Assembly (NCBI GenBank): GCA_963755715.1
Contig: CAVWLW010000059.1
Location: 32,001 to 96,000, forward strand
Reading direction: 5' to 3'
Origin: an uncultured delta proteobacterium
Lineage (GTDB): Bacteria > Desulfobacterota > Binatia > UBA9968
Length of the DNA stretch: 64,000 nt
The notes beneath the pieces are model-generated. The model ran no database searches. It had not been told where the DNA came from and saw only the letters and a list, made by a program, of their open reading frames with translations. Every line of letters begins with the position of its first letter. Position 1 is the first letter of the stretch. The position numbers and the translations under genes were made by a program. This document shows positions 1,225 to 57,846 of this stretch, in pieces.

Positions 1225-1297
1225 CTTGATCGTCAATTTGAAACGGATCAACCGTGAACGAATCTTCTCGGCAAAACGGCTTGAACGTTTTGAACTC

Positions 1298-20201: not shown

Positions 20202-20216
20202 ACCGAAGTTAAACTC

Positions 20217-20288
20217 GTTCAAGTAGTTCAAAGCATCCGAACCGATCCGGACCTATTGAACTACTTGAACGGCTTGAACGATTTGAAT
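20217..20288. repeat. GTTCAA/TTGAAC 9-mer inverted-repeat element
   Basis: gttcaagtagttcaa...ttgaactacttgaacggcttgaacgatttgaa; other copies near 1277-1296, 29866-29904 and 38002-38163. Confidence 0.75.
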
Positions 20289-29752: not shown

Positions 29753-29837
29753 CTGTCATCTCGAGCACAGCGAGAGATCTTTCCGAGTCTGCTGCACCCT
29801 CGCCAAGAAAGATTTCTCACTTCGTTCGAAATGACAG
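29753..29837. repeat. GTCA-type palindromic element
   Basis: ctgtcatctcgagcacagcgagagatct...ttcgaaatgacag; half copy at 26074-26101. Confidence 0.75.
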
Positions 29838-29906
29838 CGTCGGCAATCAGTTCCAGCACAGCCAAACGGCTTGAACGATTTGAACGGCTGGAACGTTTTG
29901 AACGAC

Positions 29907-31854: not shown

Positions 31855-32937
31855 CTACTTTTGCGCCTCATCCACGTATTTGCGTACGAAGTCGATGACC
31901 TCGGCGGGAGCGCGCAACACTTTTTCACGAAGTCTTTCCCCATCCTCGCCTGTCTCAAAGCGTGGCTGGAACTTCATCACCTTTTTCGCTTCGCCGATAA
32001 AGTCTTCGTCTTTCGCAAGCGAAGCGAATGCCTGGCGCATCGCATCAATCGCCGCGGGCGGCGAGCTCGGCGGCAGCAACGCCACCCGATTCATGTTCTG
32101 GCTTGCCATATTCGCCGCTTTAAGCGCTTCGTATTTGATCCCAGACGGCGCTTTGCCGAAGATCTGCGTATAGACCTCGGTGAATGAGCTCAGCTCGGGA
32201 TAATCGGGGCTTTTCCTCATGGTTCCCTCCGGGCTGATCAGATCGTGATAGTAGAGCGGCGTGACAATGCCGGTCTTGACCAGTTGCGGCTCGACGACGC
32301 CGCGGTAACCGGGAATATTTTCGTCGTGATATTGAATTTCGTTGCGCTGCACGGCGAGGCGGGCATCATTGCTGCTGTTGTAACCGGTGACGTAGTCGTA
32401 CTTGACGCCGAGCACGTCGAACGCCAAGCGAAAGCGCAAGTCTTTGTTGCTGTCGTAGGACAAGCCGCCGGCTCGGAAACGTTCGGCTTTGGCGATATCG
32501 GTCGGCTTCTTAATGCCGGGAGGAACATCGGCGCGGATGTAACAGACCGTGACACCTTGCACCGACGCGATGAACGGGACTTTCATCAAATCGATGCGCA
32601 ACGACGGGCTCTTCATCATTTGATGATTATAAGGACCGGTAAAATAACCCAGCGTAAGCGCGTCGCGCTTCGCCGCTTCGCCCAGAAAATTGATGCCCGT
32701 CACGCCGCCGGCTCCCGCCATGTTCTGCACGATCACCGCCGGGTTGCCGGCAATATGTTTGGCCAAGTGCCGCGCCACGATCCGGCCTTCGATGTCGGTC
32801 GGGCCGCCCGCCGCGAAGTTAATCAGGAAGATCACGTTCTTGCCCTGATAAAACGGTCTCTCCGCGGCGACCGCGCAAGTCGCCGTGACAATCACATTCG
32901 AAAGGAACATTAGAAAAATCCGGCGCACCGATTTCAT
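31855..32937 (-). CDS. Divergent TctC/Bug-family substrate-binding protein
   Basis: 'FYQGKNV', 'AGGPTD', 'HIAGNPAVIVQNMAGAGG'. Confidence 0.8.
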   Translation of the reverse strand: MKSVRRIFLMFLSNVIVTATCAVAAERPFYQGKNVIFLINFAAGGPTDIEGRIVARHLAKHIAGNPAVIVQNMAGAGGVTGINFLGEAAKRDALTLGYFTGPYNHQMMKSPSLRIDLMKVPFIASVQGVTVCYIRADVPPGIKKPTDIAKAERFRAGGLSYDSNKDLRFRLAFDVLGVKYDYVTGYNSSNDARLAVQRNEIQYHDENIPGYRGVVEPQLVKTGIVTPLYYHDLISPEGTMRKSPDYPELSSFTEVYTQIFGKAPSGIKYEALKAANMASQNMNRVALLPPSSPPAAIDAMRQAFASLAKDEDFIGEAKKVMKFQPRFETGEDGERLREKVLRAPAEVIDFVRKYVDEAQK

Positions 32938-37972: not shown

Positions 37973-38173
37973 TGTCTCCTACCTCTTTGTTGGTCCCTAA
38001 AGTTCCAGACGTTCAAGCTGTTCAATTGCTGAGCGGACCCTGCCCTGAGCGCAGCCGAACGGGTCAAGCCCCCTCTTTGATCCTCCCCCCGCTTCCGTGG
38101 GTGAGAAAACTATACTCCGAGCCGAATGGACCGAGGAGTTGAACGATTTGAACGGCTTGAACGAGTTAATCTA

Positions 38174-50753: not shown

Positions 50754-50844
50754 ACCGCAGCACCGGTATCCCTCGAGGTTGTTGCATCACGGCAACCTTG
50801 AGGGTTATGGTTCGGGCAAATTTTCGGCGGGAAGGGGAAACACT

Positions 50845-51870: not shown

Positions 51871-51909
51871 CAAACGCAAGCTACAAATCGCTCTAAAGAA
51901 GGAGACACC

Positions 51910-52939
51910 ATGGTGACAAGATTTTTGTTCGGACTGTTGGTTCTGTTTTGGTCTTCTACGCTCCACGCTCAAGCGCCTTTTTACCAAGGCAAGACGATCC
52001 AGATCATCGTCGGCACCAAGGCCGGGCGATGTCTATGATCTTTATCCGCGGCTCGTCGCTGAGTTTATGCCAAAGTATATTCCGGGAAATCCAAATATTA
52101 TTATTCAGAATGTCGCCGGAGCCGCCGGACTGATCGCCACCAATCAAGTTTACAACATTGCCAAGCCCGATGGCCTGACCCTAGGCGCGATTTATCCGGC
52201 GCTTTATTTCGAACAGCTCGCCAAACGTCCGGAAGCCAAGTTCGAGTGGAACAAGTTCAATTGGATCGGCAGCACAGTGAGCTCGAACAGCTTGATGTAC
52301 ATGCGGTCCGACACGCCTTATAAAACCATCGAGGATATTCGCACCGCTTCGACGCCGCCAAAGTGCGGCGCCACCGGTGTCACATCGACCGCCTATTACA
52401 TGCCCAAACTCCTGGAAGACGCCGTCGGCGCCAAGTTCGATGTCGTGCCGGGTTATGTAGCGGGCCAGGACATCGACTTAGCCGTCGAGCGCGGCGAGGT
52501 CATGTGCCGGGCGTTCACCGTTAACGCCTTTTTCGCTCGCGAGCCATTTATCACGTGGCGCAAGAAAAACTTCGTTCGCGTCCTGTATCAGACCGGGTCG
52601 AAAAGGGATGCGAGGATCAAAGACGTTCCGTTATTTAACGAGTTGATGGACAAATACAAGACGACGGAAAATGTACGACGGTTGGTGAAAGTCGTCGTCG
52701 CCGCCGATGAGTTCGGCCGTCCCATCGTCATGCCGCCAGGGGTTCCGGCCGACCGCGTCAAGATCATCCGCGATGCGTTCAATAAGGCAATCAATGACCC
52801 AGCCCTGCTGGCGGAAGCCGAGAAGCGTCGCCTCGACATCGACCCAGCCACCGGTGAGGAACTCGACTCTTTGGCGAAAGAGGTCATGACCGCGACGCCC
52901 GACGTCGTTGAAAAAGTAAAAAAGCTCATCGGCATGTGA
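51910..52939 (+). CDS. tctC: TctC/Bug substrate-binding protein, array copy 6, frameshifted near 52025
   Basis: ATG 51910 after GGAG gives a signal peptide plus 'FYQGKTIQIIVGTKAG'; an extra G in gccgggcgat breaks the frame. Confidence 0.85.
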
Positions 52940-52968: not shown

Positions 52969-54027
52969 ATGTTGAGGAAACTTGAAAGAGCGAAGTTCAC
53001 CGCTTCGCTCTTTTTTTTCATCGTGATCTACTTGAGCGCGACCGCCCACGTCGACGCGCAAAGCAACTTTTACCAAGGCAAGACGATCAGGATCGTGATC
53101 GGCTCTTCCACCGGTGGCGGCTACGATCTGTGGGCGCGGGTCTTGGCCCGGCACTACGGCAAGTACATTCCGGGCAACCCGACGATCCTGGTGCAAAACA
53201 TGCCGGGCGCTGCGTCGATCGTCGCGACCAACTATCTCTCCAACGTCGCCAAACCGGACGGGCTCACCCTCGGCGCCATCCTGCCGGCGATTTATTTCGA
53301 TCAACTGGTCGGCCGGCCGGAAGTCAAATTCGATTTCGCCAAGATCGCCTGGATCGGCTCGCCGGAACAGAACGACATCATTCACTACATGCGCGCCGAT
53401 TCGCCCTATCGAAGCATCGACGATATCCGCAAGGCCAAGGAGCCGCCCCGCTGCGGTAGTTCTGGCACGGGCACGACTGGATTTTACATCCCGCGTCTCC
53501 TCGATGAGGTGTTGGGCACCAAACACACCATTGTCAGCGGCTACCCCGGCGGCTCGGAGATCGATTTGGCGGTCGAGCGCGGCGAAGTTCATTGTTGGTC
53601 GCCCTTGGTGGCGACTTTTTTCGGCCGGGAGCCGTATATTTCCTGGCAAAAAAAAGGCTTTGTCCGCGTACTCCTCCAGACCAACCGCAAACGCGATTCG
53701 CGTTTAGCGGACGTGCCAACCATCTACGAGCTGATGGATCAATACAAAACACCGGAAGCGGGCAAGCGCCTTACGCGTGTAATCTTAGTCGCCGCGACCC
53801 TCGGCCGCCCCATCGCCGTCACCCCTGGAATACCGCCGGACCGGCTCAAGCTTCTTCGCGAAGCTTATCTCAAGACGCTGAAAGACCCGGAGCTGGTCGC
53901 TGAAACCAAAAGGCAGCGGTGGGATATCGATCCGCTGACCGGCGAGGAGATGGAACAACTTGCCAAGGAAGTCATCGCGCAACCGAAGGAAGTCATCGAA
54001 CGGATGAAATGGGTGCTCGGGAATTAA
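52969..54027 (+). CDS. tctC: TctC/Bug substrate-binding protein, array copy 7
   Basis: 'GGGYDLWAR', 'CWSPL', C-terminal 'ERMKWVLGN'. Confidence 0.9.
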   Translation: MLRKLERAKFTASLFFFIVIYLSATAHVDAQSNFYQGKTIRIVIGSSTGGGYDLWARVLARHYGKYIPGNPTILVQNMPGAASIVATNYLSNVAKPDGLTLGAILPAIYFDQLVGRPEVKFDFAKIAWIGSPEQNDIIHYMRADSPYRSIDDIRKAKEPPRCGSSGTGTTGFYIPRLLDEVLGTKHTIVSGYPGGSEIDLAVERGEVHCWSPLVATFFGREPYISWQKKGFVRVLLQTNRKRDSRLADVPTIYELMDQYKTPEAGKRLTRVILVAATLGRPIAVTPGIPPDRLKLLREAYLKTLKDPELVAETKRQRWDIDPLTGEEMEQLAKEVIAQPKEVIERMKWVLGN

Positions 54028-54029
54028 CT

Positions 54030-55112
54030 ATGAAAACTCAGTTGAGAAGTTCAAAAGTTCAAGGGTTCAATGTTCTCGGACTCATCTTGGCTCTAATCCT
54101 TGAACTTTTTAACCCATTGAACCTTGAGCGGGCGTCTGCCCAGACGCCCTTCTATCAGGGCAAAACCATCACCATGGTCGTCGCTTCCACCGTCGGGGGC
54201 GGCTACGATCTCTGGGCGCGGCTCACGGCGCGTCACATCGTCAAGTATATTCCAGGGCACCCATCGATCGTCGTGCAAAACATGCCGGGAGCCGGGAACA
54301 TCATCGGCGCCAACTATGTGTACGGCGTCGCCAAGCCCGATGGCTTGACCCTCGGCGCCGTCAATCCCGCGCTTTATTTCGATCAACTGGTGGGCCGATC
54401 CGAAGTGAAATTCGACTGGGGTAAATTCAACTGGATCGGCTCGCCGGAAAAAAACGACGTCGTCTACTACATGCGCGCCGACACCCCTTTCAAGACCATC
54501 GAAGATCTGCGCAACGCCAAGGAACCAGCCAAATGCGGCAGCACCGGCACCGGCTCCACCGGCCACTATATTCCGCGGCTGCTCGAAGAAACGCTCGGCA
54601 TCAAAACCCAGATCGTCAGCGGCTACCCCGGCGCCCCCGATATCGAATTGGCCATCGAGCGCGGCGAAGTCTTTTGCTGGTCGCCGCTGCTCGCGACCTA
54701 TTTTGGCCGCGAACCTTATCGGCGTTGGCACAAGTCCGGCTACGTGCGCGTCCTGATGCAAACCGGGGCGAAGCGCGACCCGCGCCTGAAGGACACGCCA
54801 ACGCTGAACGAGCTCATGCAACAATATAAAACTTCCGAGGCGGGTCACCGACTGGCAAAAGTAATTTTAACGGCCGCCACCCTCGGGCGGCCCATCGGCG
54901 CCGCGCCGGGCACGCCCGCCGACCGCGTGAAGATTTTGCGCGATGCCTATGCCAAAGCCATCGCCGATCCGGAATTGCTCGCTGACGCCGCTAAACAGGG
55001 ATGGGAAGTCGATCCAACCAAAGGCGAAGAGCTGCAAAAGTTATCAAAGGAAGTCATCACCCAGCCGCGCGAGATCATCGAGCGCATGAAGTGGGTGCTC
55101 GGGCGGGAATAA
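54030..55112 (+). CDS. tctC: TctC/Bug substrate-binding protein, array copy 8 (repeat-derived leader)
   Basis: MKTQLRSSKVQGFNVLGLILALILELFNPLNLERASAQ leader, then 'FYQGKTI'. Confidence 0.9.
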   Translation: MKTQLRSSKVQGFNVLGLILALILELFNPLNLERASAQTPFYQGKTITMVVASTVGGGYDLWARLTARHIVKYIPGHPSIVVQNMPGAGNIIGANYVYGVAKPDGLTLGAVNPALYFDQLVGRSEVKFDWGKFNWIGSPEKNDVVYYMRADTPFKTIEDLRNAKEPAKCGSTGTGSTGHYIPRLLEETLGIKTQIVSGYPGAPDIELAIERGEVFCWSPLLATYFGREPYRRWHKSGYVRVLMQTGAKRDPRLKDTPTLNELMQQYKTSEAGHRLAKVILTAATLGRPIGAAPGTPADRVKILRDAYAKAIADPELLADAAKQGWEVDPTKGEELQKLSKEVITQPREIIERMKWVLGRE

Positions 55113-55115
55113 AAA

Positions 55116-56194
55116 ATGCCAAGCCGTTCAAGAGTTCAAAAGTTCAAGGGTTCAAGGTTCTCGGACTCTTCTCCGTTCTGACCCTTGAACTCTTGAACCC
55201 TTTGAACCTTGAACCGGTATTCGCGCAAGCGAATTTCTATCAAGGTAAAACCGTTAAAGTCATTGTCGGTTCGGCGCCAGGCGGCGGCTACGATCAATGG
55301 GCGCGCCTGATGGCGCAGCACATCGGCAAACATCTTCCCGGCCACCCGACGGTGATCGTGCAAAATATGCCGGGTGCGGGCGGCGTAATCGCGGCGAATT
55401 TTGTCTACGGTCTCGCCCAGCCCGATGGCTTGACTATGGGCGCTTTCAATCCCGCGGCCTACTTCGAACAGCTCGTCGGCCGCCCGGAAATCAAATTCGA
55501 TTGGAGCAAATTTACCTGGATCGGCTCGCCGGAGAAAAATGACGTCGTCCATTTCATACGCGCCGACTCGCCGTTTAAATCGATCGACGATCTGCGCAAC
55601 GCCAAGGATCCGCCCAAATGCGGCAGCACCGGCCCCGGCACCACGGCTCATTATTTTCCCCGTCTGCTCGAGGACACGCTCGGCATCAAGACGACCGTTG
55701 TCACCGGTTATCAAGGCGGCTCCGAAATTGACCTCGCCATCGAGAGAAACGAAGTGATCTGCTGGTCGCCGCTGAGCGGAACCTACTTCGGACGCGAGCC
55801 CTACAAACGCTGGCACAAGTCCGGATTCATCCGCGCCGTCGTCCAAACCGGCGCAAAACGCGATGAGCGGTTGAAGGACACGCCGACGCTAACGGAATTG
55901 ATGCAGCAGTATAAGACGCCCGAAGCGGGCCGCCGTTTGGCAAAAGTAGTCCTAACAGCGACGACTCTCGGCCGGCCCGTCGCCGCCCCGCCGCGCTTGT
56001 CGGGCGAGCGCACGAAAATTCTGCGCGATGCCTACGCCAAGACCATGAACGACCCGGAACTTCTAGCTGAGGCGGCTAAACGCGGCTGGGATGTCGATCC
56101 GCTCACTGGCGCCGAACTAGAGTCCCTCGCGAAAGATGTCATCGCCCAACCGAAAGAAGTGATCGAGCGGATGAAGTGGGTGCTCGGGAATTGA
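55116..56194 (+). CDS. tctC: TctC/Bug substrate-binding protein, array copy 9 (repeat-derived leader; ATG out of frame by one base)
   Basis: 'FKSSKVQGFKVLGLFSVLTLELLNPLNLEPVFAQ' then 'NFYQGKTV'. Confidence 0.85.
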
Positions 56195-56259
56195 CCGCAT
56201 TCCGAACTTTCGCTCGAATGATCTTTGACCTCTAACCTGCCAACAAAGTGAGGTGCTCC

Positions 56260-57366
56260 GTGAAGCATGATTTTCATAATGCGCTCCTCTCCCGCTTCAC
56301 AAGTTCTAAGGTTTTAAAGTTCAAGGTCCTCTCGCTAATCACATTGCTAATTTTTGAACTTTTGAACGCCTGGAACCTTGAACCATTATTCGCGCAAGGG
56401 AATTACTACCAAGGCAAAACCATCCGCGTCATCGTCGGTTATCAAGCCGGCGACTCTCACGATCAGTGGGCGCGCACCTACACCCGCTACCTGGGCAAGT
56501 ATATTCCCGGTAATCCGAACTTTCTCGTGCAGAACATGCCCGGTGCCGGCGGCATGATTGCCGCCAACTACATTTACAACATCGCCAAGCAAGACGGACT
56601 GACCATGGGCACCATTGGCGGGGCGTTGTACTTCGCCCAACTGATCGGCCGCAGCGAGGTGAAATACGATTGGAATAAATTTACCTGGATCGGCACGCCG
56701 GAGCGCAGCGGTTTTCTGCTCTTCATGCGCACGGATGCGCCGTATAAAACTCTGGACGATATCCGCAATGCCAGTGAGCCGCCGCGTTGTTCGGCGACCG
56801 GCGTTGGCAGCAGCGGATACGATATTCCGCGCGTGCTCGAAGACACTCTCGGTTTGCGCTTCAAAGTGATCAGCGGTTACCCGGGCGGCGCCGATCAAGA
56901 CCTCGCCATGGAACGGGGCGAAGTGCACTGCCGCGCTTTTACCATCGACGCCTTTTTCGGACGCGAGCCGTTTCCGACCTGGGTGAAGAAGGGTTTTGTC
57001 CGGGTCGTGATGCAGATGGAACGCAAGCGCCATCCCAAACTCGCGGATGTGCCAACTATTTGGGAATTGATGGATCAATACAAAGTGCCGGAATCCAAAC
57101 GGCGGCTTGCCACCGTCTATCTCAACAGCGGGCTGTTTGGTTCGCGTCCGATCGTTTCAACGCCGGGTCTTTCAGCGGAACAGGCGAAGATCCTACGCGA
57201 CGCCTATGTAAAGACGCTCAAAGATCCGGAGTTCTTGGACGAGATCGCCAAGCGGGGTTGGACCGTGGACCCGGTGAGCGGCGAAGACTTACAAACGTTG
57301 GCCAAAGAAGTCACCAGCCAACCGCCGGAAGTTGTCGAATGGCTAAAGAAACTATTAGCGAAATGA
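56260..57366 (+). CDS. tctC: TctC/Bug substrate-binding protein, array copy 10 (repeat-derived leader)
   Basis: GTG start after GAGGTG; 'SSKVLKFKVLSLITLLIFELLNAWNLEPLFAQ', 'YYQGKTI'. Confidence 0.88.
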   Translation: MKHDFHNALLSRFTSSKVLKFKVLSLITLLIFELLNAWNLEPLFAQGNYYQGKTIRVIVGYQAGDSHDQWARTYTRYLGKYIPGNPNFLVQNMPGAGGMIAANYIYNIAKQDGLTMGTIGGALYFAQLIGRSEVKYDWNKFTWIGTPERSGFLLFMRTDAPYKTLDDIRNASEPPRCSATGVGSSGYDIPRVLEDTLGLRFKVISGYPGGADQDLAMERGEVHCRAFTIDAFFGREPFPTWVKKGFVRVVMQMERKRHPKLADVPTIWELMDQYKVPESKRRLATVYLNSGLFGSRPIVSTPGLSAEQAKILRDAYVKTLKDPEFLDEIAKRGWTVDPVSGEDLQTLAKEVTSQPPEVVEWLKKLLAK

Positions 57367-57388
57367 TCAGGCAAAAGTGAGAGCTGTC

Positions 57389-57729
57389 ATGGCACAACGA
57401 TCGCGATTGGCGTGGTTAGGCTCGTTCAAATGTTCAAGCGTTCAAGATGCTCGCGCTATCCGTCTTATTTCTTCTTGAACTTTTGAACCCGTCGAACCTT
57501 GAACGGTTATTCGCGCAGTACCACACCGGGCTTGCCGGCTGAGCGAATCAAACTGCTGCGCGAGGCGCATTGGCGGATGTTCACAGATCCGGAATGTCAG
57601 GAGGACATTTTTCTAAAAAGGCTGGAATGCGCGGCCAGTCAACAGCGAGGATTCGGCGGTACTGGAAAAGAAGTCGTCAATCAATCGCCGGAGATCGCTG
57701 CGGAACTGAAACGAAATTCGCGTCAATAA
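57389..57729 (+). pseudogene. Internally deleted tctC remnant, copy 11
   Basis: Leader 'FKMLALSVLFLLELLNPSNLERLFAQ' joined directly to the C-terminal 'TPGLPAERIKLLREA...KEVVNQSPE'. Confidence 0.75.
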
Positions 57730-57846
57730 AATACCTCAACAGGCTCAGCTGGAAATTCGAAATTCGCTGGGAATCCGTTTGACCGCAATTACAATCTGCG
57801 GTAATGAGCAGATTCCCAGATTTGAACGAGAGCAGAGGAGACACGA

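Follow-up and report, generated by a model that had tools for sequence, protein, structure and literature searches.

A genus-restricted intergenic palindrome as the probable source of a signal peptide in tandem TctC receptor genes of an uncultured soil bacterium

The 64,000-nucleotide window analysed here (positions 32,001–96,000 of contig C59 of the genome G000, which comprises 7.4 Mb at 56% GC) contains a tandem array of genes coding for periplasmic binding proteins of the TctC/Bug family, and the 5′ ends of tctC copies 8–11 in this array raise an unusual question: can a dispersed palindrome built from the hexamer GTTCAA and its complement TTGAAC serve, when read in frame, as the export signal of a conserved protein? 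Based on comparative sequence analysis, we regard it as probable that the leaders of copies 8–10 and of the remnant copy 11 represent a genus-restricted intergenic palindrome read in frame as a signal peptide. The core of the original prediction made for this locus, namely that a repeat was recruited as a leader, is upheld by the build of the repeat family and by conservation of the reading frame among relatives; its confinement of the phenomenon to copies 8–11 of this genome is not.

Palindromic leaders of tctC copies 8–11

The inverted GTTCAA/TTGAAC arrays lie at the 5′ ends of copies 8–11 just where the original prediction had placed them. A scan of the window with GTTCAANNGTTCAA, allowing at most one mismatch, recovered 11 matches, all at the four leaders of these copies, against 0.29 expected from shuffled sequences, none of 100 of which reached 11. 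The units of the leader arms follow periods of 8,8,8 and 8,9,7. The predicted arm peptides are likewise found: in the frame of the mature protein, the left arms give SSKVQGF(K/N)V and the right arms (L)EL(L/F)NPLNLE, and a hydrophobic segment separates the two. The features concerned are the following (↓ marks the putative cleavage site):

54030..54140, + strand: copy 8 leader, 37 codons, from ATG 54030, which lies 2 nt past the copy 7 stop; peptide MKTQLRSSKVQGFN / VLGLILALIL / ELFNPLNLERASA, then QTPFYQGK, with the end reading ASA↓QTPFYQGK
54049..54122, + strand: copy 8 palindrome, partly decayed; intact GTTCAA x3 and TTGAAC x2, degenerate TTTAAC and TTGAGC
54141..55112, + strand: copy 8 mature domain, TctC/Bug (PF03401, E 5.4e-17)
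55091..55225, + strand: copy 9 leader in the frame of the mature protein, lacking an in-frame ATG in the assembly
55124..55217, + strand: copy 9 palindrome, intact; CCG-(GTTCAA NN)x4, 29-nt loop, (TTGAAC)x4-CGG, the arrays spanning 55126–55214
55226..56194, + strand: copy 9 mature domain, TctC/Bug (PF03401, E 6.6e-18)
56260..56394, + strand: copy 10 leader from GTG 56260, behind GAGGTG; peptide MKHDFHNALLSRFTSSKVLKFK / VLSLITLLIF / ELLNAWNLEPLFA, then QGNYYQGK
56303..56383, + strand: copy 10 palindrome; left arm decayed (GTTCTA, GTTTTA, GTTCAA), right arm TTGAAC x3 plus one TGGAAC
56395..57366, + strand: copy 10 mature domain, TctC/Bug (PF03401, E 4.4e-11)
57381..57730, + strand: copy 11 pseudogene remnant with a palindromic leader (arrays 57424–57504, x3/x3)

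The TctC profile PF03401 was recovered in all six copies tested (copies 1, 4, 7, 8, 9 and 10) with 43–66 bits against a gathering cut-off of 27. The start of copy 8 was picked by a crude codon-usage gene caller and is shared by close homologues. In copy 9, whose hexamers fall in phases 2,1,0,2 and 1,0,0,1, the ATG at 55116 is off frame by one base; past the previous in-frame stop region, GTG 55091, which overlaps the end of copy 8, is the sole common start codon in frame. One additional base after 55119 and six substitutions at 55106–55120 are seen in DNA contigs from two soil runs, each of a different study, and the relatives P0121 and P0137 begin M-x-x-P-(L/F)-K-S-S-K-V-Q. The ancestral start of copy 9 was therefore an ATG four codons before the left arm, and the copy in this assembly displays either a real frameshift or an error. 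Copy 10, in which the intact hexamers (GTTCAA x1, TTGAAC x3) span 56319–56383, most likely starts at its GTG. In copy 11 an upstream ATG (57390) sits in the third frame, and a stop after LFAQYHTGLAG is followed in the +1 frame by the last ~60 TctC codons, as aligned by eye to the C-terminus of copy 10.

We read the peptide encoded by the element as a Sec-type signal peptide because these conserved, periplasmic-type proteins have no other leader: those with a palindromic leader lack any other hydrophobic N-terminal segment. The predicted n-region is positively charged (K2, R6 and K9 in copy 8; consensus FKSSKVQxFK with three lysines), the hydrophobic cores VLGLILALIL, VLGLFSVLTL and VLSLITLLIF are uninterrupted (criterion about 7–15 residues), and the putative cleavage sites (ASA↓Q, VFA↓Q, LFA↓Q), at which small residues at −3 and −1 would be expected, are placed like the AQA↓Q of the ordinary copies. 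The motif (A/F)xA↓Q(T/A)(P/N)FYQGK lines up with the segment around the cleavage site in ordinary copies, for instance with AQA↓QTPFYQGK of copy 4. This suggests how the leader may have arisen: an element between two tandem tctC genes would have come in frame with the downstream gene in the ancestor of a TctC (Bug-family) clade, the likeliest route being a fusion in which an element ~14 nt past the upstream tctC stop was joined in frame to the downstream cleavage region. The left arm would then have become FKSSKVQxFK, the n-region with its three lysines; the start of the loop and the loop itself would give V(L/F)GL and about six further hydrophobic residues of the h-region; and the right arm would supply LELLNPLNLE, a long c-region followed by the older cleavage region. 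In this scheme GTTCAA, read in three phases, would yield F-K, S-S-K and V-Q, hence the lysines, TTGAAC would yield L-E, L-N and L-N, hence the leucines, and the T-rich loop would furnish the hydrophobic core.

The leader is widely replicated among relatives. Among the best 120 metagenomic homologues retrieved with the whole of copy 8, both arm peptides are present in 61, only the left in seven, only the right in 13 and neither in 39. A search with the leader alone recovered 62 proteins, every one of them TctC, 60 by precomputed Pfam assignments and two by reading, the latter being N-terminal TctC fragments fused to something else. In 22 leaders of relatives with at least 3+3 hexamers the loop measures 29 (16 cases), 32 (4), 23 (1) or 33 (1) nt; loop lengths differ by multiples of three such that the frame is kept in 21 of the 22, the hexamer phases are identical in 19, and, bar one frameshifted case, the loop peptides have a mean Kyte-Doolittle hydropathy of 1.9–3.1. 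Of the 14 leaders with an upstream ATG, 9 have it 11 nt ahead of their first hexamer, and an upstream stop precedes that ATG by 2–4 nt in six of 16 cases. The mature domains evolve under strong purifying selection, with a ratio of nonsynonymous to synonymous substitution rates (dN/dS) of 0.03–0.125 at dS 0.55–1.29 (copy 8 versus four orthologues, 0.054–0.081; copy 9 versus three orthologues, 0.10–0.125).

These data bear on whether the leaders are translated at all. If the true starts lay downstream, or if the genes were decaying pseudogenes, the open frame through the palindrome would be fortuitous; the absence of an in-frame ATG from copy 9 in this assembly and the broken copy 11 would fit such an account, as would stops inside the leaders of two relatives (L009 at 1560, L003 at 518) and the starts that gene callers place inside the loop (P0065, P0067, P0118). 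However, both the frame conservation and the low dN/dS values speak against it, no start codon followed by a hydrophobic stretch is present past the right arm, and starts in the loop would leave no charged n-region. We consider this explanation very improbable.

The intergenic repeat family and the direction of recruitment

The repeats fall into two classes of arrays, a more abundant one of period 9 and one of period 7–8, to which the leaders belong. The four intergenic relatives that the original prediction had cited in the window are all present, but with period 9 (GTTCAA plus 3 nt), that is, as a sister class of the leader repeats (no strand assigned):

1281..1295: intergenic period-9 TTGAAC, two units
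20209..20279: intergenic period-9 palindrome (inverted pair) between convergent genes; fold z −5.6 and −6.6
29871..29903: intergenic period-9 TTGAAC array of 4 units, one of them TGGAAC
38006..38162: intergenic composite; left GTTCCA/GTTCAA, ~100-nt core with a C-rich stretch, right TTGAAC x3

The closest intergenic relatives of the leaders, of period 7–8, lie outside the window (e.g., C36:88057–88145 and C25:4536–4618 of the same genome). The claimed likeness between coding and intergenic copies is borne out by a profile of the four leaders, which matches intergenic elements elsewhere in the genome (best E 2.8e-5), all of them between open reading frames, typically directly after a stop and beside unrelated neighbours. 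In this genome and in the relative G004 the intergenic copies share a common build, C-(GTTCAA NN)x4, a loop of 20–60 nt and (NN TTGAAC)x4-G; their arm periods vary, with 7 and 8 in any order, while those of the leaders total 24 per arm. Genome-wide, G000 holds 95 clusters of at least three hexamers and 74 strictly tandem arrays, of which 65 are intergenic by the crude gene caller, which predicts 6765 genes covering 80% of the genome; at gene 5′ ends, period-7/8 arrays are confined to copies 8–10. Between co-directional genes, 29 of 39 sense-strand GTTCAA arrays begin 3–26 nt past the upstream stop. On the sense strand, TTGAAC arrays of period 9 end at most 27 nt from the next start in 8 of 11 cases.

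The repeat family is restricted to the genus. The period-9 pattern was found in all 24 genus genomes (tallies that include G005, on which no conclusion depends) as well as in G000, with up to ~190 matches per genome, and as single matches in two of 16 genomes of other genera; the period-8 pattern was found in 21 of the 24 and in none of the 16. Controls with reversed patterns gave zero, except for one match. The searched literature, the coverage of which stops short of subscription journals, yielded no description of the family or of the leader, and a comparison of the whole window with Rfam gave no match at gathering score.

This shared genus-level distribution of leader and family could also arise in the reverse direction, with the dispersed repeats derived from a tctC leader, and several period-8 matches are themselves tandem tctC leaders, for example seven spaced ~1.1 kb apart in G004 (C7:137806–144454). 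Nevertheless, most arrays are intergenic and beside unrelated genes: of 26 distinct period-8 arrays in G004 (from the first 30 of 75 matches), 25 have no TctC gene after them, and the remaining one precedes a tctC that has an ordinary leader. Moreover, the period-9 class, the GTTCCA subfamily and the composites with GC-rich cores have no coding counterpart, and the variable periods of the intergenic arms, set against the 24 per arm of the leaders, look as if a pre-existing element had been fitted to the frame. A passage from coding sequence to dispersed repeat accordingly seems to us quite unlikely, and we favour recruitment of the intergenic element as leader.

The family shows signs of mobility. 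GTTCCA/TGGAAC defines a second subfamily, seen in five relatives (G018, G014, G019, G020, G004) and in the window at 38006–38030 and 29888–29893, and arms are matched by type: in five genomes we counted 47 GTTCAA-TTGAAC, 61 GTTCCA-TGGAAC and only 3 mixed matches, nested ones inflating these counts though not the contrast between homotypic and mixed. At the site orthologous to that at 20217, both arms consist of GTTCAA units in two species and of GTTCCA/TGGAAC units in two others, whole elements differing by this one base in every unit, and a fifth species has another element there; further orthologous post-stop sites likewise display different repeat types in different species. This turnover suggests a mobile ('selfish') nature, and the size of the elements (80–170 bp), the matched arms (108 homotypic versus 3 mixed) and the fold z-scores (−5.6 to −8.1) are features of miniature inverted-repeat transposable elements (MITEs). 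Neither a target-site duplication nor a clean empty site was seen at the orthologous sites compared; for the C41 and C36 elements, synteny or intergenic sequence is too divergent in relatives to define insertion boundaries. Composites similar to that at 38006..38162, with a GC-rich core, are present in relatives. At loci L084, L086, L087, L088 and L079, a GC-rich core containing a palindrome of its own (...CCTCCCCCGCG-N-CGCGGGGGAGG...; compare 38040–38130) is often bordered by period-9 arms, and these MITE-like composites of ~150–170 bp occupy the same post-stop site in four species. A repeat of ~33 nt that adjoins the hexamer array at 29806–29838 recurs in dozens of places in five relatives with 94–100% identity.

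We sought a partner or a conventional function for these elements. No association with Y1 transposases of the REP-associated (RAYT) type was found: PF01797 occurs in all five genera, G017 has 51+23 array matches with zero PF01797, and G029, of another genus, has 32 PF01797 matches with zero arrays. The counts of Y1 transposases thus do not track those of arrays, a comparison that did not extend to insertion sequences with GTTCAA-array ends. None of the four leader palindromes appears in the scan for intrinsic terminators, and no T-run follows the right arm. As for exported proteins beside intergenic arrays, 13 of 59 downstream genes pass a crude signal-peptide heuristic versus 16% genome-wide, which is no clear signal, and TctC genes make up 7 of 122 array neighbors versus 1.2% of genes, a weak excess.

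Constraint on the hexamers, hairpin folding and leader history

What keeps the hexamers of the leaders intact? Among homologues retrieved by their mature domain, such that the count is not circular, the residues at spacer-encoded positions are nearly always those that the fixed hexamer bases permit: at the two positions with codon NNG 54/54 and 54/54 are compatible, with ten different residues at one of them, and the corresponding values are 51/54 for NGT, 53/54 for ANN, 33/33 for NTT, and 33/33 and 32/33 for CNN. The codons fixed by the hexamers are rare ones in this genome (TCA 6%, AGT 8%, CTT 11%, GTT 16%; G+C at third codon positions 0.70). Thus, the hexamers are held at the nucleotide level and the spacers are free, and selection on the peptide therefore does not explain the arms. 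A peptide-level account would have FKSSKVQxFKV and LELLNPLNLE kept as a dedicated sorting or recognition signal, with the DNA palindrome a by-product; the two blocks are indeed unusually conserved for a signal peptide across homologues of 70–94% identity. Yet, beyond the compatibility of the variable positions with the hexamers and the rarity of the conserved codons, the same hexamers occur in hundreds of non-coding copies, and orthologues without them keep conserved mature domains behind unrelated leaders, which leaves this account with hardly any probability.

The original prediction also had the palindrome double as an mRNA hairpin. For copy 9 a strong hairpin is evident (−51.1 kcal/mol, z −8.13 versus shuffles), but those of copy 8 (z −1.24), copy 10 (−1.67) and copy 11 (−1.4) are weak and decayed; for the relatives, a double duty is plausible. 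Compared with synonymous recodings of the same peptide, the 22 leaders of relatives with at least 3+3 hexamers have a median fold z of −3.15, versus +1.05 for 27 leaders without hexamers. Situated ~11 nt after the ATG and often ~14 nt past the upstream stop, such a hairpin might make initiation dependent on the ribosome of the upstream cistron; alternatively, it might protect the 3′ end of the upstream mRNA. That it also acts on expression is speculative, and we would bet against it. RNA contigs from two metatranscriptomes (X15 and X20), which as contigs do not reveal transcript ends, cover parts of copies 8–10, mostly at 90–95% likeness; the joints within their alignments fall in conserved mature regions, with sides of 21–32 bases, and are read as chimeras of paralogues.

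Several observations weigh against the interpretation of the palindrome as a translated, maintained signal peptide. The c-region of 13 residues with two glutamates is unusual for Sec leaders, and the crude heuristic, which flags 37 of 79 TctC genes, passes copies 8 and 9 and not copy 10. In this genome copy 9 has no ATG in its frame, copy 11 is a pseudogene and the hairpin is weak in three of the four leaders. None of the X15/X20 RNA contigs bridges a whole leader, the nearest being one piece of 53 bases on the right arm of copy 9. The leaders in the rare-codon and frame/loop sets were chosen by their hexamers, so that hexamer invariance within those sets is circular, and no compensatory changes were seen between left and right spacers, which were read by eye. 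Lastly, the sense strand folds more stably than the antisense strand in only 14 of the 22 leaders (median difference −1 kcal/mol, p 0.055); with folding near-equal on the two strands, these values do not favour a role at the RNA level over one at the DNA level.

The history of the leaders was traced on a quick maximum-likelihood tree of 58 mature domains with SH-aLRT (approximate likelihood-ratio test) branch support. Its well-supported branches require nine or more changes of leader type in the 58 genes, the palindromic leader being found in the orthologue groups of copies 7, 8, 9 and 10 and once in the copy 4/5 group. The original prediction held that copy 7 has an ordinary leader; its leader is non-palindromic here, but its orthologues in G018, G017, G003, G002, G014 and G023 carry the palindrome. 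The copy 7 group is thus mixed, copy 7 and its orthologue in G008 sharing a different leader, and recruitment therefore predates this genome, with leaders often lost or exchanged. No donor of the different leader of copy 7 was found within G000 by blastn or by peptide motif.

The copy 7 leader (ATG 52970; LERAKFTASLFFF, beginning MLRKLERAKFTASLFFF...) is encoded by a terminator-like hairpin at 52984–53022 with a 13-bp stem free of mismatches, a loop of 5 nt and eight consecutive Ts (RNA fold z −4.5), the features of an intrinsic terminator. The G008 orthologue (L011) retains both the hairpin and the T-run; thus, a second, unrelated hairpin is read as leader in the TctC family. By reading, RAK-x-x-ASLF(F/L)F is present in at least five of the best 120 homologues.

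These data also bear on a model in which the palindrome encodes the leader but plays no part in tctC expression at either the RNA or the DNA level, and in which the hexamers stay intact through the genome-wide uniformity of the family. Copy-and-paste, gene conversion between dispersed copies or palindrome-templated repair would renew them, and selection would remove out-of-frame outcomes. More generally, a factor recognising the hexamers might keep them, or else such homogenising or mobile dynamics of the family itself might do so. In array-poor genomes the leader hexamers do decay alongside the intergenic copies: G007, G008 and G022 have the fewest period-9 matches (4, 3 and 12), and none of the seven genes of the copy 7/8/9 clade in them keeps at least five hexamers, while G000 itself is poor in period-8 arrays (13 matches) and the leaders of its copies 8 and 10 are decayed. 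The wholesale difference between GTTCAA in two species and GTTCCA in two others at one orthologous intergenic site, the differing repeat types at other such sites and the lack of a sense/antisense folding asymmetry point the same way. On the other hand, both of the genes examined in G024, a genome with 167 period-9 matches, have ordinary leaders; the three low-count genomes group together in the gene tree and may reflect a single loss; the succession of stop, 2–4 nt, ATG, 11 nt and hairpin, in six of 16 cases, resembles a coupling device; and a second, unrelated hairpin is kept in a TctC leader of the copy 7 type, conserved in G008. This passive retention of the hexamers has, in our estimate, somewhat less than an even chance, and it accounts for the data nearly as well as a role of the hairpin in expression; in either case the palindrome would be the source of the signal peptide.

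Other irregularities are seen in and around the array. Copy 6 (51871–52067) has an ordinary leader and the first ~20 mature codons, after which the sequence continues in the +1 frame (...TKAGRCL* / ...PGDVYDLYPRLV...), through either a frameshift or a sequencing error. A perfect 15-bp hairpin at 50770–50804, between the stop of copy 4 (50753) and the probable start of copy 5 (z −2.9), is not of the hexamer family. A tandem repeat of ATTTTGG/ATTTTCG, rare in G000, lies upstream of tctC at L010, L011 and L008 (in G022, G008 and G014, respectively); it takes the place of the left arm of the palindrome in some tctC genes and is read by gene callers as an N-terminal ...NFGFWIFDFGLS... (P0046, P0066, P0069, P0074, P0086, P0090).

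Comparison with known elements and biological implications

Palindromic elements have been described in frame inside the protein genes of Rickettsia (Rickettsia palindromic elements, RPE; Ogata et al. 2000, via the review PMC2229807). In both cases a palindromic family is found intergenically and in frame within conserved genes while the host protein stays functional. RPE, as described there, are insertions of ~100–150 bp on the surface of the mature protein with a conserved peptide, whereas the element described here constitutes a putative cleaved leader, has arms that are tandem arrays of a single hexamer and is held in its hexamer nucleotides. Another parallel is YPAL/RU-2 of Yersinia, an enterobacterial repeat resembling a MITE, whose hydrophobic reading frame has been joined in frame to the start of an open reading frame, where it provides residues 1–30 of the 41-residue signal peptide predicted by SignalP for YPO1552 (Delihas 2007, PMC2759123; PMC2229807). 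YPO1552 is described as one small hypothetical protein, conserved only within two close species, with a predicted signal peptide; by comparison, the leader described here is found on a defined family of periplasmic binding proteins, in several orthologue groups of a genus, with ~60 sequence variants and clear purifying selection on the cargo. The event as we read it is of the same kind as those of RPE and YPAL, and what is new is the transporter-receptor family, the genus-wide replication and the visible nucleotide constraint.

The REP element at malE-malF is an intercistronic hairpin that stabilises or processes co-transcribed mRNA. The present family differs from REP in that we saw no GTAG/CGTC-type head, in its lack of association with Y1 (RAYT-like) transposases and in its hexamer-array arms. 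ERIC and Correia elements are likewise reported to be intercistronic hairpins that stabilise or process co-transcribed mRNA (PMC2229807). The resemblance to these and to REP/BIME lies in dispersed palindromes just past stops, between co-directional genes, that form stable stem-loops in the transcript.

In yeast experiments by Kaiser et al. (1987), about a fifth of random peptides reportedly replaced the invertase leader. By this analogy a lysine-encoding arm, a T-rich loop and a leucine-encoding arm could work without much prior adaptation, the present case being that of a natural, repeat-derived leader. At locus L056 (G004 C2:~324056), the gap between a stop codon and the ribosome-binding site of the next gene, which codes for an unrelated binding protein and has an ordinary leader, is filled by GTTCCA x4 followed by GTTCAA x3; a fusion like that of TctC could arise from such an arrangement.

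A bolder proposal, to which we give a low probability, is that the GTTCAA arrays are cis-elements of a genus-specific system with a factor that reads the hexamer in RNA or DNA. Were this so, the TctC leader would carry a dual code, with the same 48 nt selected both as hexamers and as codons of a signal peptide; the hairpin would make each gene of the array depend, for its initiation or the survival of its transcript, on translation of the preceding one; and the terminator-like hairpin of copy 7, translated as ERAKFTASLFFF, would be a second independent instance of the design.

With or without such a factor, the TctC leaders would offer a natural, widely replicated case of a non-coding repeat turned into a protein module, represented by ~60 sequence variants across species. 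They would also illustrate the tolerance of signal peptides, as variation is confined to spacer and loop positions and to what the fixed hexamer bases allow. The analysis further exposes an abundant, previously undescribed repeat family of an uncultured soil lineage, which the source names of close homologues suggest to be Candidatus Binatia, with a rule of post-stop position and two arm-matched subfamilies, and it carries a warning for annotation: in these genomes, sequence that looks like a repeat at the 5′ end of a gene can in truth be coding.

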